In this document: positions 6,127 to 64,000 of the stretch, in pieces
Layout: every line of letters starts with the position of its first letter
Position numbering within the stretch: position 1 is the stretch's first letter
Origin: Vermamoeba vermiformis
Taxonomy: Eukaryota
Direction: 5' to 3'
Assembly: GCA_045837725.1 (NCBI GenBank)
Contig: JBEWZL010000202.1
Coordinates: 248,001 to 312,000, forward strand
Length of the DNA stretch: 64,000 bases
Notes under the pieces: generated by a model
Databases searched by the model: none
Told to the model about the DNA's origin: nothing
Seen by the model: the letters and a program-made list of their open reading frames with translations, nothing else
Program-made: the position numbers and the translations under genes

Positions 6127-7878
6127 ATGAGTGGCTTGGTAAGCCCAGATCGATTTTTCGTCCTCAACAACAATTTTTAACGTTGTTTAACCATATTAGA
6201 CACGAATAATATTTTTATTACCATGATATCATAATTAATTTCCGATTTTAATTAATACATATCGTAGACCCTGCTTCCAAATGAGATTTGGTTCGCTATC
6301 TTGCGAAATATTAAGGAACCACTTCCTATTAATGGTGACAAAATTCATACATTCGCAATAAGATGCGCTCTGATGATGCTTGTTCGAGTTAACAAGCGGA
6401 TGCAGCAAATAGTTATGGATTACAGAGCGGCAACTCGACTGCCTAAACTCAGCCTCCTTGATAACTTGGGCAGTTATTTTGCTTATTATGGATATTTATC
6501 AGCGTTACAATACGCACGAGAAACAGGCTTAGAGATCTCGGCGGATGTGTGCGGCAAGGCTTCATTAGGCGGGAACTTAGACTGCTTAAAATACGCAGCG
6601 CAACATTGCCCTAAGATAGACAGTCGTGCGTGCACTAATGCAGGCATCAGAGGCTCGTTGGAATGTTTGAAATTTGCCCACGAGAACGGTGCTACTTGGG
6701 ACAACACTACGACTGCCATGACTGCCAGATATGGAAACTTAGAGTGCCTAATGTACGAGCACGAGAACGGCTGTAACTGGGACGAATGGACGACGGCTTA
6801 CGCAGCGGAGGGAGGGCACTTGGACTGCCTCAAGTACGCACGAGACAACCAGTGTCCTTGGACGATCAAAACGGCTAATTACGCTGCGAATCGCGGTTAC
6901 TTAAATATACTTAAGTATACCTACGAGAATCGGTGCAATTGGTCAGAAGACACGGCTGCTGCCGCGGCGAGATCTGGCAACTTGGAATGTTTGGAATATC
7001 TCTTCGACTATGGCTGTCACTGGGACGCTAAAGCTTCCAAAGAGGCTGCTGAAGCTGGCCAGTTCCACATACTGAAGTTTTTGCACGAAAACGGGTGTCC
7101 TTGGAACGAGACAGCATGCGCTGGCGCCGCTAAAAATGGCAACTTGGAAATGTTAATCTATTTGCACGAAAATGGATGCAAATGGAACGAAACGACTTGC
7201 AGTGCCGCTGCATCGAATGCACACCTTGAAATATTGCGATATGCACGTAACAATGGTTGCCCATGGGACGAAAACACGTGCACGAGCGCTGTATCAAATG
7301 GGTCATTGGCTTGCCTCAAATACGCTGTAGAAAATGGTTGTCCTTGGAGAGAAGTGTCCAAGTGCGCCGTCCGAGCAGCTGACAATGGTTTCTTAGAAAT
7401 ATTGCAGTATTGTCTTGAGCGTGGTGCTTCAAAAACAGATCCGCTGATCACGAAAAAACTAGCCATGAGGAATTCGTTGGAAGGCGTCAGATTCGCCTTC
7501 ACACTAGGGTGTCCATTAGATAGTTCGATATGTAGCGTAGCAGCTGAAAAAGGAAATTTACAATTGTTGAAGTTTGCTCACGAGAACGGATGTGTTTGGA
7601 CCGAAGAAACTACAATGCAAGCAGCGCTTAATGGTCATATTGACTGCCTAGAATATGCACACGAGAGTGGCTGCCCTTGGAACGAAGAAACGACGCTTGC
7701 AGCTGCTCGCAAGGGTCATCTTTCGTGCCTCATCTACGCTCGAGAAAACGGATGTGGCTGGTCGGCTCCTGCAGTTACTTACGCTTGGAACAATGGATTT
7801 AAGTATGTAGCTAGATATTGTATAGCTAACGGTTGCCCAGTTGATTTTTCGAAGCTTGTTAATTATCGACCAGAATAA
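6127..7878 (+). CDS. F-box + ankyrin-repeat protein (giant-virus-style GCPW repeats)
   Basis: Micro-exon MSGL (6127-6138), intron 6139-6267, then LLPNEIWFAIL...LVRVNKRMQQIV (F-box-like) and about 17 repeats of ~26 aa of type AAxxGHLExLKYAHENGCPWxxxT. Confidence 0.9.
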
Positions 7879-31570: not shown

Positions 31571-34500
31571 ATGTCATCGACGCAAACAGCAATTACTATT
31601 GCAGCTTCCACGTCGATAGCAACAGCGCTGCTGATCTACCTGCTACTTCGTCCAAAGAGGAATGATGTCATCGGACCGGAATCAGATCTAAGAAGGTCTG
31701 ACGATGGAAGAAAAATTCAAGAGGATTCACTTAATCGGCGGAGAGCAGCTGTGCTAGGTATAAAATTATTTTTTCAGATTAGATTTCGAATCTGCTTCGA
31801 ACTAAACGCGCCTTATTCGCACAATATTTTGAAATTTATTGCACACGAAATATTATAGCATTTATTCTGCGTTTTAATTATTATTCTTTCATTTTGAATT
31901 TTTGCGGGCGCTGACGTTGCTTCAAATTTACATAAATAATAATTCATTTAATAGCAAAACCTCTTCCTGAATTGGAACACAAGAGAGCTGAAGAATCTGA
32001 TGACCAAGAGGAAAATATTTATGCGGATGTACCTCGCGATCACAAAAAAGAAGCAGGCCACGCGACTGACAATACAAGTGGCGCTGCAAAATATTCTTCG
32101 AAAAATTTAAGGGTAATTATTCGCTTAGCACAGCTTTTATCGCACTAACCGAAAATATTGCGGATCTTTTTTGAAAACTCCGCGAGCTGCTTTTAATAAC
32201 AATATAATATTTAGTATTATCAACAATCCTATGATACCGATGGAATTGTATTTAAAGAACCCGTGATCCCGAAGAATATTTATCGAGGCTATTCGTCTCA
32301 TTTCCCTGACAGGTAAGTCTTTATTATTTAATTCGGATAAATTCAATTCAATTTGCGCGACCTTCCTTACGTAAACAACATTACTATTTTAAGCGATTTT
32401 CGGAAAGAATATCATTTTAATTGAAAATTTCTTATTTTCGGACCGATTGTAAATTCTCATCGAAATTCTAATACTATTAAACTTATATATAACCATATTG
32501 CTTACGTTATTTTTGCATTTGCAGTACGAGCGATCAAGCAGTATTTCCTAATAATGAAGTCAATGTCAAACGACTCGGCGATTGGAACAAAAGATTTCAA
32601 AGCTGCATCAAAAAATTGAACACATTTACGCTATTAACACCGCTGCAAGAACGATTGGCCGTGAATTTAGATCTCATGCACTTGGCACAAGATTTTATTT
32701 ACGCTGCGACTACCTACGGAAAGATCATTATTTCCGAGTATTATTTGCCGCGTGCCAAGAAAACTATTAAACCTTGTTCAGAGCTCCCCGGCGTAAGTCT
32801 AAAAATAGTACTATTAATTGTATATATATTAACCTATTGTAGCTCATGGGCGGTCAAAAGTTCATCGTGCACAACATTTTGTTCAAGTTTGCAGTCGATT
32901 ACAACGGCTTATTTGGCAATGATTACGCGGCAGCAAAAGCAGCTGGAAATGAACTACGAGGATTGATCAGTTATTTTAACACGGGCATTTCTGACCTCAA
33001 CGTGCCTTTGATGGCCCTGGTCGATTACCGCGGCTTCCGGTTGATTGCTATGTCAATTTTACCCGTGGGAGAAGAGACTATTATCTACGGCAGCTGGTAT
33101 GTTATCATTCATATCGATATAGGCCATATACTTATTATGTAATATAGTGACGCTGGTCGAAACATTCATGCCAACAATGAAGAGTTCAACGAGTTGATGA
33201 AATTAGCAGCCAAAAAATTGAACTTAAAACCGCACAGATGTCGCGTGGCATTGCGTAAGAACAAGCCGAAGACACGAATGGACTCGAGGACACATATCAG
33301 AGGAGCTTCGTCTGACTCACGACACGGCTCTGGAGATTTCCGATTCGGTTCATCTCCCGCGCGAGATACAAGCTCTAATACCTCGCCGTTGCCAAGCCCA
33401 AAGGGAAATTACACTAATGCTAATGGCTCGGAAAAATATAACGACAATGCATTGACGAGCAGTCAAAGTTCATCTGACGCAGATGTCTACGAGACACCAA
33501 TGTTGGCTCGCAGTTACTCTTCTGAAGACGAGTTTGACGAGGGCACGGATTTTTTGTACTCGCCTGCTGATTTGGAAGGGCACAAAGGCCGCGTAAGTCA
33601 CGTGCTCGAAATTACTTTGCGTAACTCTAACACTGACCAATGACAGGACGGCAAATTCTACTTGTTGGACTTCAGTCGTGTGTTGCCTCCCGAGACTCCT
33701 AATCCTCAGTAAGTCATTGAAAAATATTCTTATTTCACCGTGAGTGGATGCTGATCCGTTTTCACATCAGTTTCAAGAACAGTCATCTTTCAAGGTTGCT
33801 TCGTCCCGAATTTGTACAAACTTACCCGAAGCCACTTTGTCCCGATGCTTTTAGCGGTTTCATGAAAGGTATGAAGGTCAAACTTTTTTCAACCATTTTT
33901 TTAACTTTTTTATTTGCAGAGGATGGTGAGGAAAATCTTCACAATTCAGAGCTGAAAGAAGCCACCAATCACTTGATCAATGTGCTTGTGCCTAAATTTG
34001 CTAAAGCAGACTTGGTCAAGTTGATGGCCGATGCACGTGAACAAGGCCGTTTGACGGAGTTCAGATTGACCGAGACTATTCACAGCGTTGGTATTAACTG
34101 CAGATACATCGGCTTGTTGCGAAAGAACACCGAAGACCCTGAGTTCAAGCGCATAATGTTGATTGAAATGTTGGCACGTGTCATCAAGAACAATTTGCGC
34201 TTCAAACTACGCGAGAAAATGAAAATTTTGCGATTGCCTCTGGAAGAGCCCTACAGGTACATTATTATTACCCATAACATATCCCATATTAATTTTTTAT
34301 ATAGACGATTGGTTATCGACTATTTCAACCTTGTCTTTGGTAACACGAAAAATTCTGACAGCTACTGGGACGACTTTTTGAAGAAAGATTTGTTGATCAA
34401 TTTTCCGGCGTCCCTTCACACCGCAGAAGCTACAAAAGATCATCACTTAAAGCCACGTGTCACTGAGCTTAAAGTCAGCACTGTCGTCGATCAAAAGTTC

Positions 34501-35335
34501 ATGAACTGTTTGTTCGAAAAAGTGCGCAAGATGATGGCACTGGCCTTTACGAACAGACAATACAACTTTAACTTGGAACAACCGTTTGATGATACAGACC
34601 TTGATACTATAGGCGAGCGCGTGAAGCATATGAATATCATGGCGCACGCACAAGGCTTTTTCTATCACATGAAAGGTCTTATCAACCGCGTCGATGACCC
34701 GTTGAACGCGCAAAAGTTTTACGAAACGGCTATTGGCAAGTTCGAGGAGGCGTTGGATGCTAACCCTAACAACAAAGAGGTACAGTATTAATTATATAGT
34801 AAGTTATACTGACCGTTGACTAACCGATGGATCTGACAGATCTTGTTGAGCATTGCGTTGACTTGGATGCTTTGTATTGAAGAAGAGATGAAGCTTAAAC
34901 CTACTCATAATGAACGAGAAAAAGTACTTTTTACACGCACAGACCCTCGTGTCAGAAAGGCTGAAGAATATTCTTTGCGGGCTATTGCAGCTGAACCCAA
35001 ATATGGTAAGTGATTTCAGTACGACCAACGAAAAATTTATATTTCATTCATCAAGATAATGTATCTCGTATGACATTACGACTGACCCATAATAATTTTT
35101 AGACTCGTTCTCGTTGTTCAGATACGCACAATTTTTGGAAAAGTGTGGCGATCTGGAAACAGCGGAAGATTATTACTTGATGGCACTTGAAGCGGATCCA
35201 AACAATGCAGGTTGCTTGCATTGTTATGGTAATTTCTTGTCTGAAAGAGGCTTGGAAGAAGAAGCTGAGAGCTTTTATCTGCGGTCTTCGAAGAACACGA
35301 TCGGTCAAAAGTACATGCCTGAATATTACTACTAA
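31571..35335 (+). CDS. Clu-domain protein with N-terminal TM anchor and C-terminal TPRs
   Basis: DFIYAATTYGKIIISE, GGQKFIVHNILFKFAVD, AAKAAGNELRG, LVDYRGFRLIAMS, ADLEGHKG, YLLDFSRVLPPE, LLRPEFV, HSVGINCRYIG; TPRs at the end. Confidence 0.9.
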
Positions 35336-45793: not shown

Positions 45794-46485
45794 TAATGTT
45801 AGCGAATATTTTTTGAACGATTATATAAGAATGAAAAATCGGTCGCAACAAAATTAACATAGTACTACTTTGAGTACAAAGTCAGTATTGCAAGAAGATC
45901 ACGTATGAAGGATCGAAATGCCTCCTATATTTCCGTCACTCATACTGTATTGAATATCGAAGGAACACTTGGTGCTATTTCGTGGATTTCGATTTATATT
46001 CACGCGGAAAAACTAAAAATGGTAAGAACTCGATGACAGTAATGGATTTGGATACGATTCTTAATTTAAGGGAAATTTCAATAACGGAATTATTATCCAA
46101 ATACATGCACAATGCCGGTACGTTTCTTGAAAAGTTTGAGACCTCATTTTGAGATTGACAGTCGTTCGCTCTTGCCTACCAAACACTTACCATGTTTACG
46201 CTTAAGAAAGAGTTGTTTAATTCTTTAGAAATATGTGCCTTCGCCGCTCGTTGACTTTCGATTGACTTAATTGCCAGCTCCGGGAGGCACCAGAACGCTG
46301 CTACCCCGCTTCATAGGGATAAATGTTAGGGGCAATGAAAACATGTGCGGAATAACGCGCAGAAAAAGTATATTCCTCGGTATCAGCCATGAATAGACTC
46401 GTCACGTGAAATCACACATAAATAACGAAGCAATTTCAATTCAAAACATCATCTTCAACCTACTCAACACAACACTACATACTCA

Positions 46486-47514
46486 ATGCTTACTACTATG
46501 GCTACAAACGATGTCAAGCCCAGTGGCGCAGGTCTGCTGAGGTTCGAAACTCGCGACACCACAATTAAGGCATCCGCCAAGGAACCTGTAGTTCCTCCTG
46601 GTGTACAACTCACTGGAGCGCCGCTCTTATGGAAGCAATCCATTGCTGGCAAAGGCATCGTTGTCGGCGTGATCGACTCTGGTATCGACCGAACGCATCA
46701 CGATCTGCAAGGCCAAGTGGTGATTGCTCGAGATTACGTGAAAGATAATGCCCCGATAAGCAACTGGAATCTCCATGGAACTCATGTGGCTGGAACCATT
46801 GCTGCCAAAGGAAACATCATGGGCGTTGCTCCTGAAGCCAAACTGGCTGACTACCGTGTCCTTGGCTTGGACGGCAGTGGCAATGTCGATGCCATCACAA
46901 TGGCTATTCGTCAAGCTGTCGTCGATGGCTGTCACATCATCAACTTGAGTCTTGGATCTCCTTCTGACTATCCGCCGATGCACCAAGCGATCAAGTACGC
47001 CGTGTCCAAGAACGTATTGGTGGTGGCCGCTGTTGGCAACAGAGGTGACGGCAAACCAACCACCAGAGAAATAGACTTCCCTGGTGCCTATCATGAAGTG
47101 GTTGGTGCTGCTTCAGTCGCGTACGATCAAGCGACTGGCAAGCTGCGTCCTTCTGATTGGTCCGACACCAGCGAAGAAGTCGACGTCTGTTCAGTCGGAG
47201 AAAACGTTCTTTCGTGTGCCCCTGGCGACAGATACGTAGTCATTTCTGGCACGTCCATGGCCTCGCCTCACGTGTCTGGCTTTGCCGCGTTGCTTCTTTG
47301 CAAAGCGAAGATGAGAACTGACTTGTCAATGATCCCCGAAGAAACGCTGTACAACATGGTGAAGACGACTACTGTTGACACTGGAGTACCAGGAATCGAC
47401 GTTGCTACTGGCGCCGGATTCGTCACGTTCTATCCTGCTATGCCAGATCCGTCCACTCTCAAGTCTCAACCCAACCCGCAAACCGTCGCTCAGATGTTGA
47501 ACACGGCGGCGTAA
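46486..47514 (+). CDS. Subtilisin-family (S8) serine protease, intronless, resembling intracellular subtilisins
   Basis: Triad motifs VIDSG, HGTHVAG, GTSMASPHV; INLSLG; AAVGN oxyanion Asn; no signal peptide or I9 prodomain. Confidence 0.95.
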   Translation: MLTTMATNDVKPSGAGLLRFETRDTTIKASAKEPVVPPGVQLTGAPLLWKQSIAGKGIVVGVIDSGIDRTHHDLQGQVVIARDYVKDNAPISNWNLHGTHVAGTIAAKGNIMGVAPEAKLADYRVLGLDGSGNVDAITMAIRQAVVDGCHIINLSLGSPSDYPPMHQAIKYAVSKNVLVVAAVGNRGDGKPTTREIDFPGAYHEVVGAASVAYDQATGKLRPSDWSDTSEEVDVCSVGENVLSCAPGDRYVVISGTSMASPHVSGFAALLLCKAKMRTDLSMIPEETLYNMVKTTTVDTGVPGIDVATGAGFVTFYPAMPDPSTLKSQPNPQTVAQMLNTAA

Positions 47515-47936: not shown

Positions 47937-50900
47937 CTACCATTGTTGTGGAGGAGGTGCGCCACGTCCAGGCATCATCATCTTCTTAGGACCGCCAGGA
48001 CCGCCCATCATTTTCTTGGGACCACCGGGACCAGGGCCTCCCATCATCTTCTTTGGGCCACCAGGACCAGGGCCTCCCATCTTCTTAGGACCGCCGGGAC
48101 CAGGACCGCCCATCATCTTCTTGGGGCCGCCAGGGGTAGGACCGCCAGGCATGGGTCGCTTGGCTGGGCCACCTTGAGACACCGGGCCGTTGTTGGCAGG
48201 CGCGGGTCTGTTAGCGCGATCGCTGCCGTAGGTGTCGGCGTAGTTGGTCTGAGACACGACTGGCTTCTCGGGCTCGCGAAGGTTGGGATAGGCATCGCGA
48301 CCAAGACCAGGGCCGACGAGGATCTTCTTGCTCTTGTAGATACCTCCTTCGGGTGCCTTGGGGCTGGGAGTCCAGATGTACTTGACCTTCTTGCCCTTGA
48401 GACCAGTCACCATCATTCTATTAACGTTTGATTAGCTATCAGTCCAAAAACCAAGTGGATCAAGATCTACTTACTGATCGGAGAACTGAACGTTCAAGTT
48501 GGCGTTGAACTTCAACAAGACAGACAAGACTTCAGTCTTCTTGCGGACCTCGAAGAGCTCGTCAGTTTCAGTGGGGCTAGGAGGCACAGTGATCATCATC
48601 CAGTTGTCAGACAAAGTCGACAATGTGACGGACTGGACTTGAGTGGGCTCAATACGACGAACAGCGTTCCAAATGAAGGGCTTGGTCTTCTTAGTGTTCT
48701 TGTCCTTGTTAGCTTGCGCTTCAATAAACCAGATGTACTGTTGCGAAATGACAAGCACTCGTCGAACTTTCTTGGCCTTGTCGAGACCGTAGCACGTGTC
48801 AGCAAAGTGGACCTTGACGTCTTTGCCGACAATAGACTTGAGACCAAAGTTCTCGCGGTAGTTGATGTAGTCAGTGTTGAACGGTCTATCGAGCGACAAT
48901 CGTCTTCTGTCCTTGCGACCGCGCAACTTGTCGTTGACGTTCTTCTTGAGCGTGTAGAAGTAGTAGTCCATCGCGTACTTCAAGAAGAAGCGTTGGATTC
49001 TGTTAGCGTACGTGTACGTCTTGCGCTCACGAAGCTCTTCCAAGCTGAAGACGGTCTCAGGGGCACGCACGAAGATCTTGGTGTTGCCGGGCGAGTAAGG
49101 CTTAGTGCTCGCGTCCAACTGAAGTGACTCGAGAATGGCCAGCGCACCTTCCTTGTAACGGCCAGACCAAGCATCTGGGGGCCAAGTCTTGTCGCAGCAA
49201 ATAGCGTAGCGGAAGAAGAACTTGTCGTAGAACTGACGGAAGGCGTAACCAGCACGACGAACCTTGACGTTCTCCAACAGACCCAAGTACTTGACTTGAT
49301 GCTCCACACGCGTGGTGTCGAAGTCGTTGGCGGCCTTGCGATCGTTAGGCTTGATGCAACGAATGTAGTGCGGGTGGCAGCGAGACAAAGCGTCGACAAG
49401 TTCACCGATCGACTGCTTGATCTTGAAGCCGGCAGTGGTGGGCTTGCGCTTGTCGTCAGCGGTCTTGGACTCGGGGAACAAAATAGGGATCAACCAGCTG
49501 TTGGTGGATTGCGACAAGTTGATCAAGTCGTTGTAGAGCGTGTCCTTGTTCTTGTCAGTCATGCCGTCAGTGTTGTACTCGACATCACCGGCATAGTGCT
49601 TGATGATGAAGCAGCCAGAGCGTTGAGCCATGCCAAAGTGAGCGTGTTGCGAGTGGTACTCTTGCAACTTGCCCAAAAACTTCTCGTCCGTGCCCTTAGG
49701 GAAGTTGCACGTGTCGTCCAAAAGCGTCAACACACCAATAGGATCTTTCTTGGACTCGATCAAGTCGCAGCAAATCTTGTTGTTGAAGAACTTGATGGGC
49801 TCCCATTGAATGTTCTCGCGCTTGTACTCTTCTTGCTCTTCTTTCAACGTCAAGTTGATGAAAATTTGTTGCAATTTTTCATTGACGTAGTTAATGCACA
49901 GCTGTTCGAAACCGTTTTTCTATATTAAGAAAGTCATATTAGTACTCGTAACTAATGTTTTGTATCGTGCTTGAGACTCACCTCGAAGATCTCGAATCCG
50001 TAAATGTCGAGAATACCAATCATGATGTAGCTAGGGTCGTCAATGAAGCCCAAGACTTGATTGACACGTTGCACAATGTAGTCGAACAAACGGGAGTAAA
50101 TAGCCTTCGCAAGGGCGTCACGGGAGTAAGTAGCGCCAGCAGCGTCTTGAGGCACTGAATAGACAGATCCACGGCCAGCAGTACCAGTCGAAATAGTTCT
50201 GCAAATGCATTAATATCGAGTAGCCGGCGGGTACATCTCATTCATGAAAAAACGAAATCGATATGTGAGGTAGATTACCTGGTGCAAATGGCGGTAGTGA
50301 CCGATTGCGCATCCGTTTGGAACAAGTACGCGAACATGTCCACGACGCCAGGGTCCGCGATTTGAGCCTCGTCTTTCGCGTTTTGAGTGAAAGTGACGTT
50401 GCCGAGCCACAGAATGCAAGACAACAAACGGAAAATTTCGTACTTTTCTTCCGCTGAGAAGCCCATAGTATCCATGGCTTGCTGTTAATTATAATAATAT
50501 CCATTAGTATACTGCACTCATGGCATATTTAATCGATAGTGAGCTCGTTAATCGAGAAAAAAAGTTCGCGGCATCTAGATTTGTTTTTCCGTACCTCAAC
50601 TTCTCTGAATTCTTCGGTGTCGTTCATGCCATCGACAGTGTAGCAAGCACCTTGGTTGAGGTAGTTATAGTAGCTAGCGTCTTGGAGTCTGAAATCGTCT
50701 GTTGAAAAGATCCAGTTAACCTCGGGTTCAGATGCGATCAGAAAACGACTTTAAATCGACTTACTCTTGTATTGGCTGTTAGAACTAGCAAGCAATTGGT
50801 AGAAGATGTGGAAACAGCGTTCGTTAGGGGTCTGGTAAACGACTCTAGACTTCTCCAACAAATCTGAAGTAGATGCGGTCAAGGATCAACAAAAAAACAA

Positions 50901-54314: not shown

Positions 54315-56505
54315 ATGGAGGCCAAACAACAAAAGCAAATTGACGACGAATTGGTCGAATTATTTAATTATTATTCTTCTTATGAAGACTTGCCTGCTAG
54401 TAGACTAGGCAAAGATGATTTAGTAAGTAATAATCGAGCGAAATTGTGAACTGACGGATCTAATTTTCAAATAATTCCGGTTTATGTTAAAAAATTGAAA
54501 TTAACCGTCGGATTAATATCAATATGCTATATTAAATATTTACAGTTATATTAACCTATTCCGTTGCTTAGCTCTTCTTGATCCAAGATCGTTGCAACGC
54601 ATATTTCTCGAGAGACCATATAATTCATCTGATACCAAACAGAAATTATTGCGAGACTTATCCACCTCAATTTATATTCATGGGAAGCCTTAACTTCGAT
54701 GTAAGTCACTTGCAATGATTTTTTCATGATCCATCCAATTTTAGCAAAATCGGATCTGACTTTCCTCAAAGGACTCGAAAGAACATGACGCGGAAAAGGG
54801 TGAAAATTTATCACTACAATTAAAGCACGAGCAAAATGCACGAAAGTTAGAAAAAGGAATGGAGATCAGCAAAAATTGCCGAGTTCATCAACGATTTCCA
54901 GGTCAGATCCAAATCAATTCTTCTAAAATACACAAATATTAATTTAATCTATTAGTGCCTGTAATATTATTCGGCAAAAAGAATATTTGCCGGTCAGCAA
55001 GTCTTTCAGAAGCCGTCGAAATTTTTTATCGATCAAAAACTCAAAATCTGTAAGTCCCATTTTATTAATTTTATCAATTTTATTCTAATTTTATTAGCGA
55101 TCGAAATTCTTCGAGGACGCAGCACAGAAAAATCGACGTTAAATGGTTGAAAATTTTAAAAGTCAAACATATCGTGGATCTGATGGTCAAAGATACGTTC
55201 CAAGTGTAAGTCTAATACTACCATATTTATACATTACTATTATATTAACTAAATGCGTAGTCTCGGTATCGCTCTTTACGCATCTGAAAAAGCTAACGAA
55301 CAACACCGATCCAATTTTAAAATCAATGGATTGCCGTACCCAGGCGTCGAATCATTTGAAGACTTTATTGAACGTGTAGAGAAGCGTAAGTACTATAATT
55401 ATATACATATAGTGAACTTATATTAAGATCTAGTATTAACATGTATTATCGAAAAGTGAATGGTAAACCAATGACCACGCAATTTTGGCAAAGAATTCCC
55501 GCGCCAATTACATTGTCCATGCCTTATCAACTGCCTAAGCCTAATGATTGGAGTGCATATAGAAGTTGGAATATAGGTACGAACAGCTATACCGTGGATC
55601 TTAAGATCTGGATCCGAATCTGTTTTCGGACCGGTGGATCTAACGACATTTTTTATTCTTAGTGCAACTCACACAGAACTATATTCGATACATTATGCAC
55701 CTGCTACACGACCCCGATGAGGAAGCAGGTCTTTCATTGCACTGTATCTCAGGTATGTGTCGTACATGACGCGTCAAAACGCTTTTTCAAATCACGTGAA
55801 AATTTTACACGGCAGATCTACCTACTTTGAGTTCATTGTTACGGACTTTCGAAATGTTAATATTGAGTTTATTAGGTTGGGACCGAACGCCATTGTACAT
55901 ATCATTACTTCGTATTCTATTGTGGGCTGAAGGTCTCGTCCACCAGTCGCTGGATGTGGATCAGTTGCTTTACTTGACCGTCGCTTATGATTGGTTGTTA
56001 TTCGGGTACGCATCAAATCCAGTTATAATTACTATAGACTAACAATCTATTTAGACATAACTTGGTGAACCGATTGAACAAAGGTCGTCAGATCTTTTTT
56101 TTCTGTTTTTGGGTGTTGGACTACTTGAAGGACGACGATTACAGCTACGGATACGAATTGCAGTTGAAGAACATGAACTGGGAGGCTGGAACATACACCG
56201 GCGTCGCTCCTTATGACATGCCCAGTACACCTGCGACCGACGGTGGAAATTCAACTAATACCAATAGTAACAATACCGATGGTGCTGATCAGACACAAGA
56301 GAGTTCGAGCAGCAATCCCACGAGTCCTCGTAGTCCTAGATCCGTCATCGGTGAATTGAATTCTCCCGAACGACGAAGAGAGCGAAAGAGACGCTTAGAA
56401 GCGATCAGAGCCAAGTTCATGCGACTCTACAACGTGCATATTCATCCTAAGTTCAAGGACAGAAAAAACATTGTCAAAATATTGTTAAATATGCTTCCGC
56501 AATAA
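54315..56505 (+). CDS. MTMR14: Myotubularin-related protein 14 (phosphoinositide 3-phosphatase)
   Basis: RFPVPVILFGKKNICRSASL, IVDLMV, ASEK...LPYPGVE, catalytic HCISG|WDRTPLYISLLR, AYDWLLFG, IFFFCF. Confidence 0.93.
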
Positions 56506-56605
56506 ACAAGCTAAAATTGCTCACGCAGTTTTTTTTAATAATAATGTCTTTATGTACTATTTAAATTAGAAACAAATAAATAAGGGGATTGTCAGGGTTT
56601 ACATC

Positions 56606-59600
56606 TTAGTTCTTCTTCGCACTGAAGCCAAACTTGATGCCACCGCTGGTCTTAGCTCCGCCAGAGACCTTAGCATCACCGCTGGTCTTGACACCAACGG
56701 ACACCAAGCTTGGCCTTCTTGGAAGAAGAGCTGGAGCTTGAAGACGAGCTAGAGGAGCTCGATGAGGACGATGATGACGAAGAGTCAGAGCGCTTGATCT
56801 TGACGTCGCCGCCGGTCTTAACTCCCAAACCGACGTTAGCAGAACCACCAGTCTTGACTTGAGCATCGCCACCGGTCTTAACTCCCAAACCGACGTTAGC
56901 AGAACCGCCAGTCTTAACGCTGCTGTCTGCCTTGACATCAGCACCAGTGTGGACCTTGGCGTCAGTGTCGGCCTTGACCTTGACATCACCACCAGTCTTG
57001 ATTCCAAAACCACCGTTAGCGTGGCCGTCTCCGTGAACCTTAGCGTCGGTATCAGCCTTGACCTTGACATCACCACCAGTCTTCATTCCAAAGCCAGCGT
57101 TGGCATTGCCGTCTCCGTGGATCTTGGCATCGCCTCCGGTCTTAACTCCCAAACCAATGTTGGCGTTGTTGTCGGCCTTGACCTTGACATCACCGCCAGT
57201 CTTCACGCCGAAGCCAAGCTTGGCCTTCTTGGAAGCAGAGGAAGAGCTAGAAGAGGAGGATGAAGAGGAGTCAGAGCGCTTGATCTTGATGTCGCCACCA
57301 GTCTTAACACCCAAACCAATCTTGGCATCGCCATCGGTCTTGACCTTGACGTCACCACCAGTCTTGATTCCAAAGCCAGCGTTAGCGTCTCCGTGGATTT
57401 TAGCGTCGGTATCAGCCTTGACCTTGATGTCACCACCTGTCTTGATTCCAAAACCAGCGTTGGCGTTGCCGTCTCCGTGGATCTTGGCGTCGCCTCCGGT
57501 CTTAACTCCCAAGCCAACATTGGCGTTGCTGTCGGCCTTGACCTTGACGTCGCCGCCAGTCTTCACGCCAAAGCCAAGCTTGGCCTTCTTGGAAGCAGAG
57601 GAAGAGCTAGAGCTTGAAGAAGAGGATGAAGAAGAGTCAGAGCGCTTGATCTTGATGTCGCCACCAGTCTTGACGCCCAAACCAATGTTAGCATCGCCGT
57701 CGGTCTTGACCTTGACGTCACCACCAGTCTTGATTCCAAAGCCAGCGTTAGCGTGGCCGTCTCCGTGGATCTTGGCATCGCCTCCAGTCTTAACTCCCAA
57801 ACCAACATTGGCGTCGGTGTTCACCTTCATTCCAACATTGGCGTCTCCGTGAAGCTTGGCATCTCCGTGGATCTTGGCGTCTCCGTGGACCTTGGCATCA
57901 GCGTGCATGCCTGTGCCGACTTTAACATCAGCATCAGTCTTGGCCTTCACGTCACCACCAGTCTTTACTCCGAGACCAACTCCAAATCCGGCCTTAGCCT
58001 TGCCAGAGTGGCTGGAGGATGAAGATGAGGACGAGGACGAGGAGGAGGATGAAGAGCGATCGTGAGTCTTGACACCAACGCTAAGTCCAGCCTTGGCTTC
58101 AGGGACCTTAACGTCAGAACCAGCCTTGACGTTAACATCGCCACCGGTCTTAACACCAAATCCAGCGTTGGCATCAGTATCGGCCTTGACCTTCACGTCA
58201 CCACCAGTCTTTACTCCGAGACCAACTCCAAAACCAGCCTTAGCCTTGCCAGAGTGGCTGGAGGATGAAGACGAGGACGAAGACGAAGAGGAGGATGAAG
58301 ACGAAGAAGAGGAAGATGAGCGATCACGACCCATGCCAGCGCCAACCTTGACATCAGCGTCGGCTTTAATGTTGGTGTTTGAACCAGCACCAATCTTGAG
58401 ATCGCCGTCGACCTTGACACCTCCGTCGGCCTTGATGTCAGCACTAGCACCAGCCTTCAATTTCTTGGAGGACTTTTTCTTCTGGTGAGGAAGTCTCCAC
58501 TTTCTCTTCTTCTTGGTCTTGAGCTCGCCATCGCCGCGAGGAGAGACATTGGCATCGACATTAACTTCACCGTCGGCCTTGATTTCAGCAGAACTGCTAG
58601 CCTTCAATTTCTTGGAGGACTTAGATTTTTGGTGAGGAAGTCTCCACTTTCTCTTCTTCTTGGTCTTGAGTTCACCGTCGCCGCGAGGAGTAGTGATTGA
58701 AGCATCGGCATCGACATTAGCTTCACCATCGGCCTTGATTTCAGCGGAGCCGCTAGCCTTCAACTTCTTTGAGGATTTCTTCTTCTGGTGAGGAAGTCTC
58801 CACTTTTTCTTCTTCTTGTCTTTAACTTCAGCGTCCACTTTAACCTTGACATCAGTGTCTGCGCGAGGAGTAGTAACAGAAGCACTGCCACCAACGTTTG
58901 CCTTCGGGGTGCCAACAGACACATCAGCACCGACGCTGAGCTTAGCCTTATCACCATTAGAGGAGGATGAAGACGAGGAAGATGAAGACGAAGAAGAGGA
59001 GGAGGAGGATGAAGAAGAGCGAGAGTGACCAACCTTGGGACCCTTGACTTTAAGATCAGCATCACCATCGACCTTGATCTTAGCATCGCCGCCCAAGCCG
59101 ACCTTGACATCAGCGTCACCCTTGATCTTGAGATCAGCGTCACCCTTAGGGGTTCGCGGAGTAGTGACCTTCATGTCGCCATCAGCCTTGACCTTTACAT
59201 CGGCGTCAGCTTTGATCTTGATGTCGCCTTCAGCCTTCGGTTTCTTGCCGCCAATCTTGGGGAACTTGAACTTCTTCTTGTCTTTGCCTTCACCAGACGA
59301 GGATGAAGAAGACGAAGACGATGATGATGAGTCATCGAGACCGCCACCAATCTTGGGACCTTTGACTTTGACATCGCCACCAGCCTTGACCTTGGCATCG
59401 CCACCAAGACCAACCTTGATATCAGCATCGCCTTTAATCTTAGCATCGCTATCGGCCTTGATCTTGAGATCAGCGTCACCCTTAGGGGTTCGTGGAGTAG
59501 TGACCTTCATGTCGCCATCAGCCTTGACTTTAACATCAGCGTCAGCTTTGATCTTGACGTCGCCTTCGGCCTTGGGTTTCTTGCCACCGATCTTGGGGAA

Positions 59601-62600
59601 CTTGAACTTCTTCTTGTCCTTGCCTTCGCCAGAAGAAGACGATGAGGAAGACGAAGATGATGATGATGAGGAGTCTTCGAGACCACCACCAATCTTGGGA
59701 CCTTTGACCTTGACATCACCACCAGCCTTGACCTTGGCATCGCCATCAGCTTTGACCTTGGCATCGCCACCGAGACCGACCTTGATATCAGCATCGCCTT
59801 TAATCTTAGCATCGCTATCGGCCTTGATCTTGAGATCAGCGTCACCCTTAGGGGTTCGTGGAGTAGTGACCTTCATGTCGCCATCAGCCTTGACCTTTAC
59901 ATCGGCGTCAGCTTTGATCTTGACGTCGCCTTCAGCTTTGGGTTTCTTGCCACCAATCTTGGGCAACTTGAACTTCTTCTTGTCTTTGCCTTCGCCAGAC
60001 GAGGATGAAGAGGACGAAGATGATGATGAGTCATCGAGACCACCACCAATCTTGGGACCCTTGACCTTGACGTCTCCTCCAACTTTGATCTTGGCATCAC
60101 TGTCAGCCTTGATCTTGGCATCACCATCGGCCTTGACCTTGAGATCGACGTCACCTCGAGGAGAGGAGACCTTAACGTCAGCACCAGCTTTGATGTTGGC
60201 GTTGCTATCGGCTTTGACCTTGACATCAGTGTCGGCTTTGAGCTTTACGTCACCTTCAGCCTTTGGCTTCTTGCCACCGATCTTGGGGAACTTGAACTTC
60301 TTCTTGTCCTTGCCTTCGCCAGAAGAGGACGACGAAGAGGACGAAGATGAAGACGAGGAGGAGTCGAGACCACCACCAATCTTGGGACCTTTGACTTTGA
60401 CATCGCCACCAGCCTTGACTTTGGCGTCACCACCGAGACCGACTTTAACGTCAGCTTTAGGCTCGTTAACCTTGATGCCGGCATCGGCCTTAATCTTGAC
60501 ATCAGAATCGGCTTTGACCTTGGCATCGCCACCAAGACCAACTTTGACGTCGGCCTTGGGCTCGTGCACCTTGGCATCAGCATCCGCCTTGATCTTGGCA
60601 TCACTGTCAGCTTTGATCTTGACGTCGCCTTCAGCCTTGGGCTTCTTGCCACCAATCTTGGGGAACTTGAACTTCTTCTTGTCTTTGCCTTCGCCAGAAG
60701 AAGACGATGAAGAGGATGAAGATGAAGACGAGGAGGAGTCTTCGAGACCACCACCAATCTTGGGGCCCTTGACTTTGACGTCTCCTCCAACTTTGATCTT
60801 GGCATCGCCATCAGCTTTGACCTTGGCATCGCCACCGAGACCGACCTTGATATCAGCCTTGGGTTCGTGAACCTTGACGTCAGCATCAGCCTTGACCTTG
60901 ACATCACCACCAAGGCCAACCTTGACATCAGCCTTAGGCTCATGGACCTTAACGTCAGCATCAGCTTTGGCTTTAACATCGGCATCGGCTTTGATCTTGA
61001 CGTCGCCTTCGGCCTTGGGTTTCTTGCCGCCAATCTTGGGGAACTTGAACTTCTTCTTGTCCTTGCCTTCGCCAGACGAGGATGAAGAAGACGATGATGA
61101 TGAGGAGTCATCGAGACCGCCACCAATCTTGGGACCTTTGACTTTGACATCGCCACCAGCCTTGACCTTTGCATCGCCACCAAGACCAACTTTAACATCA
61201 GCCTTGGGCTCTTTGACTTTCACATCAGCATCGGCTTTGATCTTGACATCACCGTCGGCTTTAACCTTGACATCGGCATCGGTCTTGACTTTTACGTCAC
61301 CACCAAGACCAACCTTGACGTCGGCCTTGGATTCCTTGACTTTAAGGTCAGCATCGGCCTTGATCTTAGCATCGCCATCGGCCTTGACTTTAATATCAGC
61401 GTCAGCTTTGATCTTGACGTCGCCTTCAGCCTTGGGCTTCTTGCCACCGATCTTGGGGAACTTGAACTTCTTCTTGTCCTTGCCTTCGCCAGAAGAGGAT
61501 GAAGAGGATGAAGAGGAGGATGAAGAGTCGTCGAGACCACCACCAATCTTGGGACCCTTGACTTTGACATCGCCACCAGCCTTGACTTTGGCATCGCCAC
61601 CGAGACCGACTTTAACGTCAGCTTTAGGCTCGTGAACCTTGACACCAGCATCGGCTTTGATCTTGACATCGCCATCAGCCTTGACCTTGGCATCGCCACC
61701 AAGACCAACTTTGACGTCAGCCTTGGGCTCGTGCACCTTGCCATCAGCATCAGCTTTGACCTTGGCATCACCACCAAGACCAACCTTGACATCAGTCTTG
61801 GGTTCCTTGACCTTGATATCACCATCTGCTTTGATCTTGGCGTCACCTTCAGCCTTCGGTTTCTTGCCGCCAATCTTGGGGAGTTTAAACTTCTTCTTGT
61901 CTTTGCCTTCGCCAGACGAGGATGAAGAAGACGATGATGATGAGGAGTCATCGAGGCCACCACCAATCTTGGGACCCTTGACTTTGACATCGCCACCAGC
62001 CTTGACTTTGGCATCGCCACCGAGACCGACCTTGATATCAGCCTTGGGCTCGTGAACCTTGACGTCAGTGTCAGCCTTGACCTTGGCGTCGCCACCCAAG
62101 CCAACCTTGACATCAGCCTTGGGCTCTTTGACTTTCACATCAGCATCGGCCTTGACCTTGGCATCACCACCGAGACCGATCTTAGCATCTCCGCTAGCCT
62201 TGACATTAGTGTCACCACCAGCCTTGATCTTGGCATCACCACTGAGGCCAACCTTGACGTCAGCTTTGGGTTCTTTGATTTTCAAGTCAGCATCGGCCTT
62301 GATCTTAGCATCGCCATCGGCCTTGACTTTAACATCAGCGTCAGCTTTGATCTTGACGTCGCCTTCAGCCTTGGGTTTCTTGCCACCAATCTTGGGAAGC
62401 TTGAACTTCTTCTTGTCTTTGTCTCCACTCGAAGAAGACGATGAAGAGGATGAAGATGATGACGAATCATCGAGGCCGCCACCAATCTTGGGACCCTTAA
62501 CTTTGATATCGCCACCAGCCTTGACTTTGGCATCGCCACCGAGCCCAACTTTAACATCAGCCTTGGGTTCGTGAACCTTGACATCAGCATCGGCCTTGAC

Positions 62601-64000
62601 CTTGACGTCGGCGTCGGTCTTGATCTTGGCATCGCCACCAAGACCAACTTTGACGTCAGCTTTGGGCTCTTTGACTTTCACATCAGCATCGGCCTTGACC
62701 TTGGCATCACCACCGAGACCAACCTTGATGTCGGCCTTGGGTTCCTTGACCTTGACGTCGGCATCAGTCTTGACCTTGATGTCAGCATCGGCCTTGACTT
62801 TAACGTCAGCGTCGGCTTTGATCTTGACTTCGCCTTCAGCTTTGGGTTTCTTGCCACCAATCTTGGGAAGCTTGAACTTCTTCTTATCTTTGTCTCCACT
62901 CGAAGAAGACGATGAGGACGAAGATGATGATGAGGAGTCGTCGAGACCACCAATCTTGGGACCCTTGACTTTGAGGCTGCCATCTCCCTTGATCTTGGCA
63001 TCGCCACCCAAACCAACCTTGACGTCAGCTTTGGGTTCTTTGACTTTCACATCAGCATCGGCCTTGACCTTGGCATCGCCACCGAGACCAACCCTGATGT
63101 CGGCCTTGGGTTCCTTGACCTTGATGTCGGCGTCGGCCTTGACTTTTACGTCAGCGTCAGCTTTGACCTTAGCGTCGCCACCCAAGCCAACTTTAATGTC
63201 AGCTTTAGGTTCCTTGACCTTGACGTCGGCATCGGCCTTGACCTTGGCATCACCACCCAAACCAACCTTGACGTCAGCCTTGGGTTCGTGAACCTTGACG
63301 TCAGCATCGGCCTTGACTTTGGCATCGCCGCCTAAGCCAACCTTGATGTCGCCACCGGCCTTGATCTTGGCGTCGCCACCCAAGCCAACCTTGACGTCGG
63401 CTTTGGGCTCTTTGACTTTCACATCAGCGTCAGCCTTGACCTTAGCATCGCCACCCAAGCCAACCTTGACGTCTGCTTTGGGCTCTTTGACTTTCACGTC
63501 GCCACCAAGACCAACCTTAACGTCAGCCTTGGGCTCTTTGACCTTGACGTCGGCATCGGCCTTGACCTTGGCATCGCCGCCTAAGCCAACCTTGATGTCG
63601 CCACCGGCCTTGATCTTGGCATCGCCTGAAGCTTTGGCTTTCTTGTCTTTGTCGCTTGATGAAGACGATGAGGAAGAGGATGAGGAAGATGATGAAGACG
63701 AAGAGTCCGAACGATCACGACCACCTCCAAGACCAACTTTTACTTTAGGGGCCTTTACTTTGACGTCAGCGTCAGCTTTGACCTTGGCATCACCACCGAG
63801 ACCGACCTTGACATCGGCTTTAGGCTCGTGAACCTTGACGTCAGCATCGGCCTTGACTTTGGCATCGCCACCGAGACCAACCTTGATGTCGCCGCCAGTC
63901 TTGATCTTGGCATCGCCACCAAGACCGACCTTAATGTCAGCCTTGGGCTCGTGAACCTTGACGTCAGCATCGGCCTTGACCTTGGCATCACCACCCAAAC
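56606..64000 (-). CDS. Giant low-complexity AHNAK-like repeat protein with poly-Ser tracts (5'-truncated, >2440 aa)
   Basis: Uninterrupted ORF of about 7.3 kb with synonymous variation between repeats; units KVKADADVKVxEPKADVKVGLGGDA, 10x Sn-G(E/D)-(G)KDKKKFK(F/L)PKIGGKKPK, 3x KWRLPHQK. The natural-looking end lies in a shifted frame (stop at 56606). Confidence 0.9.
56620..64000. repeat. Degenerate coding tandem-repeat array (hierarchical 6-aa, ~25-aa and ~110-170-aa units)
   Basis: Recurring + strand words such as ccttgaccttggcatc, gccaccaatcttggg and aacttgaacttcttcttgtc throughout. Confidence 0.95.

Follow-up and report, generated by a model that had tools for sequence, protein, structure and literature searches.

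The minus strand of a 64,000-nucleotide stretch of the Vermamoeba vermiformis genome (assembly GCA_045837725.1, contig JBEWZL010000202.1, positions 248,001 to 312,000, G000:C202:248001-312000 in our numbering; hereafter the window) carries what, judged by its sequence, is a single-copy, intact and selected amoebozoan gene for a giant repeat protein. The genome is of Vermamoeba type, and so amoebozoan: its small-subunit rRNA matches exactly both primers for that genus and, with up to 3 mismatches allowed, does not match the Acanthamoeba primer (primers from PMC7028243). The gene starts beyond the window, where an N-terminal LIM domain provides the main functional clue, and continues through the window as one giant exon of alternating hydrophobic and charged words, Ser tracts and basic clusters. 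For the product we favour, by inference, a structural role at the cortex, and we hold at an even balance of probability the specific proposal that this LIM-headed, ~280 kDa basic cytosolic protein would tether the plasma membrane to the actin cortex, resembling AHNAK and periaxin in its working. The gene is laid out as follows, with exons 1-5 placed on the interval L011 (= G000:C202:304001-314000):

L011 9303-9238, 9183-9140, 9080-9006, 8928-8805 and 8752-8680, minus strand: exons 1-5, predicted model
56606..64000 and on to L011:8625, 625 bases past the window end, minus strand: exon 6, the whole repeat body, ~8.0 kb
56676..63998, minus strand: repeat open reading frame (ORF) of 2440 codons, 5' end open at the window edge
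56697..56703, strand not given: apparent frameshift, 4 letters absent from the short-read contig and read as an assembly insertion
56606..56675, minus strand: true C-terminal codons and stop, ending in GGIKFGFSAKKN

An earlier note on this DNA had described more than 2440 residues with no intron in view, spanning 56606..64000. The 2440-codon frame is real, but introns do interrupt the gene, every one of them beyond the window; likewise the true stop lies at 56606, but the 2440-codon frame itself stops at 56676 and the last codons lie in a different frame, the two becoming one frame to 56606 after removal of four letters. These letters, at window ~56700, are lacking from a short-read contig of run X1 (depth 359.5/359.5), as is one extra assembly letter of exon 5, at L011:8692 (depth 400.8/400.8), and our gene model comprises these two corrections. 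As X1 is possibly the source sample, its contigs can correct the assembly but do not count as independent evidence. Exons 1-5 lie 680-1303 bases past the window end and measure 44-124 nt each, and the predicted introns (54, 59, 77, 52 and 54 nt) are all GT-AG; exon 6 has an open frame of 2649 codons in the genome. The corrected full model comprises 2798 aa (280 kDa, pI 9.6), with 18 Ser tracts and a grand average of hydropathy (GRAVY) of -0.65. An upstream ATG ~60 bases before the chosen start offered no in-frame splicing by reading of the sequence, and the protein may have a few extra N-terminal residues. Because no listed contig spans the gene, the repeat number could be off. Several assembly insertions of 1-6 letters relative to short-read contigs were also seen across L011:8692-9931, and other apparent frameshifts in this genome may therefore be assembly errors.

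Selection on the protein is indicated by its own repeat copies, which in four repeat blocks differ at 31-51% of synonymous versus 2-7% of non-synonymous sites, giving ratios of non-synonymous to synonymous change (dN/dS) of 0.042-0.116; codons unused in choosing the copies gave 0.039 and 0.079. The Ser tracts are encoded by a mix of four TCN codons, the longest exact internal repeat is 110-119 nt, and GC content is 50-53% across the repeat-frame stretch against ~39% for the greater part of the window. When the genome itself (43.3 Mb, 309 contigs) was searched twice at the protein level, the 37 and 11 matches all fell inside the repeat gene, and contigs from an independent water metagenome (X5, the one environmental run mapped) matched eight listed pieces of the gene with 1-15 differences. 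Two RNA runs, X17 and X19, were mapped at 90% likeness and are taken to represent a diverged strain because 13 differences fell within ~110 bases of a neighbouring gene. Most of their reads on the repeat gene appear to be cross-matches to Ser tracts. In LIM exons 2 and 3 the listed places received 3-10 reads per run, with differences, which could derive from the diverged-strain ortholog or from another LIM gene, and none of the RNA joints listed shows the predicted splices.

Under the predicted splicing, exons 1-5 supply the start, one LIM domain (aa 14-65) and then a Ser/Val/Ala linker. The domain has eight zinc ligands at canonical spacing and fits the LIM pattern C-x2-C-x16-23-H-x2-C-x2-C-x2-C-x16-21-C-x2-(C/H/D). 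The exon 3 frame matched Pfam LIM over positions 25-49 (E 5.8e-4, 20.5 bits, below the 22.9 cut-off as a half domain) and ranked 54th of 57 in a genome-wide list of LIM matches, while exon 1 alone gave no Pfam match. Of the 17 PDB matches of exon 3, all weak (E 0.024-9), 16 are to proteins named or known as LIM proteins. This is not the PDZ-like domain or signal peptide that the earlier note had suggested seeking at the N-terminus: no PDZ match was found in the window ORF or the scanned upstream frames with a library that does detect PDZ in P0025, an AHNAK/periaxin-like protein (E 7.7e-6); the opening ~209 codons of exon 6, like exons 4-5, were assessed by reading alone and are low-complexity linker and repeats. 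No hydrophobic signal or membrane segment was evident in the full model, where the highest 19-residue hydropathy mean is 0.64.

The repeat body divides into zones:

62937..64000, minus strand: zone A, words GLGGDAKV, KADADVKV and KEPKADVKV, periods 8, 25 and 33
59019..62936, minus strand: zones B-C, ten modules, each running from a Ser tract through KKKFK(F/L)PKIGGKKPK and an alternating body to VKGPK
58320..58958, minus strand: zone D, three KKK(R/K)KWRLPHQK basic-aromatic clusters (58782-58817, 58626-58661 and 58479-58514)
56679..58256, minus strand: zone E, Gly-rich C-terminal repeats (G(F/L)GVKTGGD and HGD words, period 20) with four more Ser tracts

The window ORF is dominated by K (20%), G (14.8%), D (12.5%), S (12%), A (10.6%) and V (10.4%). 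Recounting bore out the earlier motif counts and the hydrophobic/charged alternation: the ten copies of KKKFK[FL]PKIGGKKPK (the first at 62841-62885, the last at 59235-59279) each stand 4-5 residues past a Ser tract, the three copies of KKK[RK]KWRLPHQK each follow a TPR/SPR site by 10-18 residues, and not one adjacent pair occurs among 504 V/I/L/F/M residues, against 105 +/- 8 in 500 shuffles. Hydropathy autocorrelation is -0.57 at lag 1 and +0.63 at lag 2, and words of 8-9 residues generate, over the first 1,660 residues, periods of 8, 25 and 33, giving way to a period of 20 at the end. [TS]P[RK] sites number 11 in the window ORF, with TPRTPK sites in the last three modules of zones B-C. Tracts of 11-21 Ser (17 in the window, 18 in the whole gene) are nearly pure Ser and alternate with net-basic segments (+4 to +28); only 17 S-x-x-D/E sites occur in the protein. 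The C-terminal zone has 19.7% Gly, but its description as G/H-rich overstated His, which at only 2.7% makes the zone Gly-rich instead. Three Pfam matches were rejected as compositional. Cornifin/SPRR proteins have Pro/Cys/Gln-rich octamer repeats, and the match to them (E 2.6e-24, over cut-off) falls on KVxEPK words in a body with no Cys, 0.2% Gln and 2.9% Pro; the other two are DUF2207 and SR-25, the latter at 33 bits against a cut-off of 40 and on a Ser tract.

In the proposed tether, the single LIM domain would, like that of LimE, dock on F-actin of the cortex or on a partner located there, and the ~2,700-residue tail, with a contour of ~1 micrometre, would serve largely as a flexible spacer, its Lys offset by Asp everywhere but at 13 clusters. 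These basic-hydrophobic clusters would bind acidic inner-leaflet lipids with high avidity, and phosphorylation of the Ser tracts before ten of them, and of the TPR/SPR sites before the other three, would cancel their charge and free the chain in a MARCKS/Lgl-type switch. A basic-hydrophobic scan (scanning window 19 and cut 0.6 from PMC6960411) placed its 13 highest peaks (0.87-1.24) exactly on the 10 + 3 motifs, the top scores being in zone D (1.13-1.24), and returned 11 peaks of at least 0.9 against 1.95 +/- 1.4 in 200 shuffles.

Single-LIM actin binders of the LimE/LASP type bind F-actin through the LIM and the segment after it. Dictyostelium LimE, which marks F-actin, has a single N-terminal LIM and a Gly-rich segment (PMC13064307), and the present protein is comparable, by that description, in placing one N-terminal LIM ahead of Gly-rich repeats in an amoebozoan; unlike LimE, it has no evident coiled-coil tail, and Ser tracts and basic clusters occur in its tail of ~2,700 residues. 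Clusters of basic residues are described as binding acidic membranes in MARCKS, Lgl, Numb and Miranda and as being released by phosphorylation (PMC6020718). The amoeba protein is like MARCKS and Lgl in having basic and aromatic clusters with adjoining Ser/Thr sites; it differs in carrying thirteen clusters on one chain, with Ser sites mostly beside rather than within them. Phospho-regulation, which the earlier note had raised, is our own inference too, with O-glycosylation of the Ser tracts as an alternative: homopolymeric Ser/Thr is reported as a nucleocytoplasmic O-fucose target in protists (PMC11507795) and the genome holds glycosyltransferase-41 matches (OGT/SPY-type, PF13844) over cut-off at G000:C232:464666-466387 and C77:274516-275466, so the mark need not be phosphate, and O-fucose or O-GlcNAc may compete for the tracts.

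Several results count against the tether. The same basic clusters read equally well, as sequence, as nuclear localisation signals; LIM domains also serve as nuclear adaptors, and the PDB matches of exon 3 do not settle the LIM subtype. The scan is permissive, since its total of 18 peaks falls below that of shuffles (33 +/- 6; Asp balances Lys elsewhere in the protein) and a control myosin frame gave 8 peaks; moreover, only some basic-hydrophobic sites bind lipid (PMC6960411). One of two structure models puts part of the tail in a solenoid, in conflict with a purely flexible chain. Of the RNA reads placed from X17 and X19, 92-93% run on into unlike sequence, and many repeat bins have a depth of 0. 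Finally, as to conservation, no ortholog emerged from protein, metagenome, viral or prokaryote searches.

A word-indexed search of proteins near the same length gave six weak matches among 7,990 scored candidates, the best a mite protein (E 1.2e-14); shorter proteins with the WRLPHQK region gave one unrelated match among 8,000, and longer proteins (up to 5,000 aa) one match at E 9 among 5,065. A full HMMER (phmmer) scan returned 97 matches (best E 4.8e-12), none with the LIM pattern and most of AKAxAD-type low complexity; the ten inspected in full or part were all simple low complexity except P0025. Two of the 97, at E 9.7e-9 and 4e-4, are AHNAK/periaxin-like by their KFKMP repeats, namely P0025, which has the PDZ match given above, and P0085, which lacks a PDZ match and which we take to be AHNAK/periaxin-like from its motifs. 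Metagenome contigs yielded 2 of 471 stretches (L020 and L021), viral contigs 0 of 85, and prokaryote genomes 1 of 65, where the match is to an unrelated short repeat of PKAEG. There was no usable match among unnamed Atlas clusters, and the nearest Atlas clusters were AHNAK (0.80, 0.77 and 0.76), a lead only, as a third of shuffled proteins reach that level. The suggestion that the protein was undescribed was consistent with literature searches of listings and abstract starts, which revealed no AHNAK-like or LIM-repeat giant protein of an amoeba; gene tables could mention one, and the LIM-headed giant repeat protein is apparently undescribed.

Some of these sequences merit description in their own right. 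L020:2355-10685 and P0001 are mite-type giant proteins with AHNAK-like repeats of ~60 residues, the L020 repeat being nearly the same as that of P0001, which has no PDZ and a weak IQ match. L021:2328-8105 (JAAUXT010053401.1) is an AHNAK-like repeat exon of 1925 codons that contains Ser tracts and Lys clusters and drew no informative match from Pfam. Its layout is the closest to the Vermamoeba modules, with the same word order of KAPK-type words, short Ser tracts, Lys clusters and LPKF-type words. What is presumably an HSPA12-like exon, recognised by a motif without Pfam confirmation, lies ~1.8 kb downstream on the same strand, which suggests that L021 is from an animal and possibly represents an AHNAK-type tail fused to an Hsp70-like domain.

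The likeness to AHNAK and periaxin proposed in the earlier note survives in part: it is directional and exceeds composition, but it comes with no PDZ match and a different repeat unit and is not significant at database scale. In a comparison bearing on homology with the 128/165-residue units of AHNAK, one module scored 127, 147 and 168 against P0025, P0085 and P0001 forward versus 69, 73 and 110 reversed, and none of 100 class shuffles, which keep the hydrophobic/charged pattern, reached the module scores. For two simple AKAxAD proteins the forward and reverse scores were about equal, yet again no shuffle reached the real score. Identities at the module junction amount to 25/43 with L020, 24/43 with the mite protein P0001 and 23/53 with P0085. 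A junction profile ranked five AHNAK-like sequences first among 106 (gathered by similarity to the amoeba protein, and so not a neutral background) and a sixth candidate, P0008, 11th, with scores of 8-20 bits. The repeat-profile search envisaged earlier points to the AHNAK-like sequences, but only at E 72 to 2.6e5 at library size. Four animal repeat profiles scored 5-11.5 bits against the amoeba protein, a level that class shuffles reached for two of them, whereas the animal profiles (P0025, P0085, P0001, L020 and L021) score 12-127 bits among themselves.

VKGPK..G.LD and FK(F/L/M)PK.G.K.PK occur in the same order in the AHNAK-like and amoeba repeats, both have recurring basic-hydrophobic peaks, and AHNAK-like proteins also avoid adjacent hydrophobics (3 pairs among 345 in P0025, 22 among 603 in P0085). 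A small N-terminal domain on small exons followed by one giant repeat exon is described for AHNAK (PMC10682155) and recurs in the predicted model, a layout that is not AHNAK-specific. The AHNAK/periaxin family is further characterised by a membrane-cortex location and by binding of annexin A2/S100A10 and actin. AHNAK is reported to bind actin and to be located at the membrane (PMC10682155, PMC2171952). The differences are equally clear. The amoeba protein has LIM where AHNAK and periaxin have PDZ, described as their defining domain (PMC10682155, PMC7072810); its 8-9 residue words and 25-residue period contrast with Pro spacings of 5, 7 and 9 in units of 60-186 residues; it contains 3.9% Pro, 0.2% Met and 12% Ala, against 8-10%, ~3% and 1-4%; and the long pure Ser tracts are its own. 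Given the LIM head, the lack of a PDZ match, the different unit and the non-significant scores, we do not file it as an AHNAK family member. The resemblance in sequence is directional, motif-level and located at module junctions, with homology neither shown nor excluded, and AHNAK-like working is more likely to have been arrived at by convergence than by shared ancestry. It would be rather surprising, on our estimate, if the AHNAK-type junction were an ancient membrane-binding module from the amoebozoan-animal ancestor, with PDZ as its vertebrate anchor, LIM as that of this amoeba and others among invertebrates. KFKxPK had been called typical of vertebrate proteins. That range is too narrow, since the motif also occurs in the mite protein and at a further metagenome locus of animal-like character; AHNAK-type repeats extend beyond vertebrates.

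The fold and role of the AHNAK/periaxin central repeats are poorly known, and two periaxin tail regions have been called of unknown function or significance (PMC7072810). Junction motifs, alternation and an exon plan like those of AHNAK, combined with a LIM head and Ser tracts, suggest a simple rule, that spaced basic-aromatic patches on a long chain tie membrane to cortex, and either convergence or deep homology would be informative. The case concerns a single gene from a single genome, whose product is a candidate scaffold for the cortex of a common water amoeba. If ancestry proved shared, no giant scaffold of AHNAK type would have been known from outside animals before this one, and its regular, stripped-down module, with the Ser switch built in, would open the long-standing question of AHNAK repeat function to direct test.

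It is unlikely, in our assessment, that the tail instead forms a stacked beta-solenoid with three short strands per 25-residue rung, an interior of small hydrophobic residues, Lys/Asp ladders on the exterior and Ser hinges, making a stiff or self-assembling fibre. The strict alternation and periods of 8 and 25 speak for this, and a three-word, 25-residue period would suit a three-sided rung. Structure prediction of the repeats gave two low-confidence, conflicting models. A single-sequence model (317 residues) shows 16 short strands, with a predicted local distance difference test score (pLDDT) of 51-64 over residues 181-310, and matches parallel beta-helices (best Z 9.1, root-mean-square deviation 2.9, 134 aligned). 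However, its mean pLDDT is 50.5 and its predicted template modelling score (pTM) 0.33, no residue reaches 70, and Z values of 7-9 are near the tool's stated background and reflect a common beta-helix arrangement only. The other model, from a 12-row module alignment, is almost all coil (pLDDT 48.6, pTM 0.24). The GRAVY value also argues against a solenoid, as does the predicted disorder of the L-periaxin tail (PMC7072810).

The possibility of a nuclear or nucleolar scaffold, imported through the KKKRK-type clusters and modified by CK2 or a nucleocytoplasmic O-glycosyltransferase, draws on Nopp140 and treacle. Nopp140 has a layout of alternating Ser tracts and Lys-rich stretches, comparable to the alternation of Ser tracts and net-basic segments here. 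O-fucose is reported as enriched in often homopolymeric Ser/Thr and as labelling nuclei in amoebozoans (PMC11507795), the PF13844 matches lie on two contigs of this genome, and AHNAK itself is described as nuclear in some cells (PMC2196192). Against this, nearly pure Ser tracts and so few S-x-x-D/E sites, the LIM head, an alternating hydrophobic body left unexplained and, as the sole similar Pfam match, the sub-threshold SR-25 make such a scaffold distinctly doubtful.

We consider it improbable that the protein is a dehydrin- or LEA-like protectant of cysts, its Lys-rich segments coating membranes. The earlier note had drawn this link from Ser tracts followed by Lys residues, a likeness to plant SK-type dehydrins that is genuine in a hydrophilic, Gly/Lys-rich protein, and K-segments are proposed to bind membranes by charge and hydrophobicity (PMC5415607). 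In dehydrins, however, the K-segment is the defining element and Ser tracts are 4-8 residues long (PMC5415607), whereas those of the amoeba protein are 11-21 residues long; its best K-segment match scored 26/77 (BLOSUM), below the shuffled mean of 27.5 (max 38, 30 shuffles), no Dehydrin family appeared at E <= 1, and a pattern for the conserved residues upstream of S-segments had no match in the protein. With its far larger size (280 kDa) and LIM head in addition, dehydrin membership is rejected. Lastly, two assembly frameshifts, the lack of a spanning listed contig and the absence of clear RNA cover might suggest an assembly artefact or decayed repeat rather than a working gene, which is scarcely credible given that neither frameshift is present in short-read contigs, the exons join in frame across five GT-AG introns, repeat-copy dN/dS is 0.04-0.12, the longest exact internal repeat is 110-119 nt and X5 contigs match independently.

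Other features of the window include an intron-free, 536-codon ankyrin-repeat frame with C.W repeats (6268-7878, plus strand), of a type that occurs in giant viruses and in the amoebae that host them, exons encoding a Clu/eIF3-p135-like protein (32493-34791, plus strand), an intron-free subtilase (46426-47514, plus strand; Peptidase_S8, E 1.2e-49) and a class I myosin with a TH1 domain and a Gly/Pro-rich tail exon (47937-49919, minus strand). The upstream neighbour of the repeat gene (L009:3739-4821, minus strand, 360 codons) resembles, on inspection by eye, the tail of a diverged translation-factor GTPase, with no Pfam support. Elsewhere in the genome, a group I intron (RF00028, 103.9 bits) lies in a small-subunit rRNA gene of 2310 nt (L022:2227-2567, G000:C11), and two identical-scoring small-subunit rRNA matches in opposite orientation (G000:C309:33071-34564 and 55063-56556) probably mark contig C309 as an organelle genome with an inverted repeat, or as a doubled assembly.

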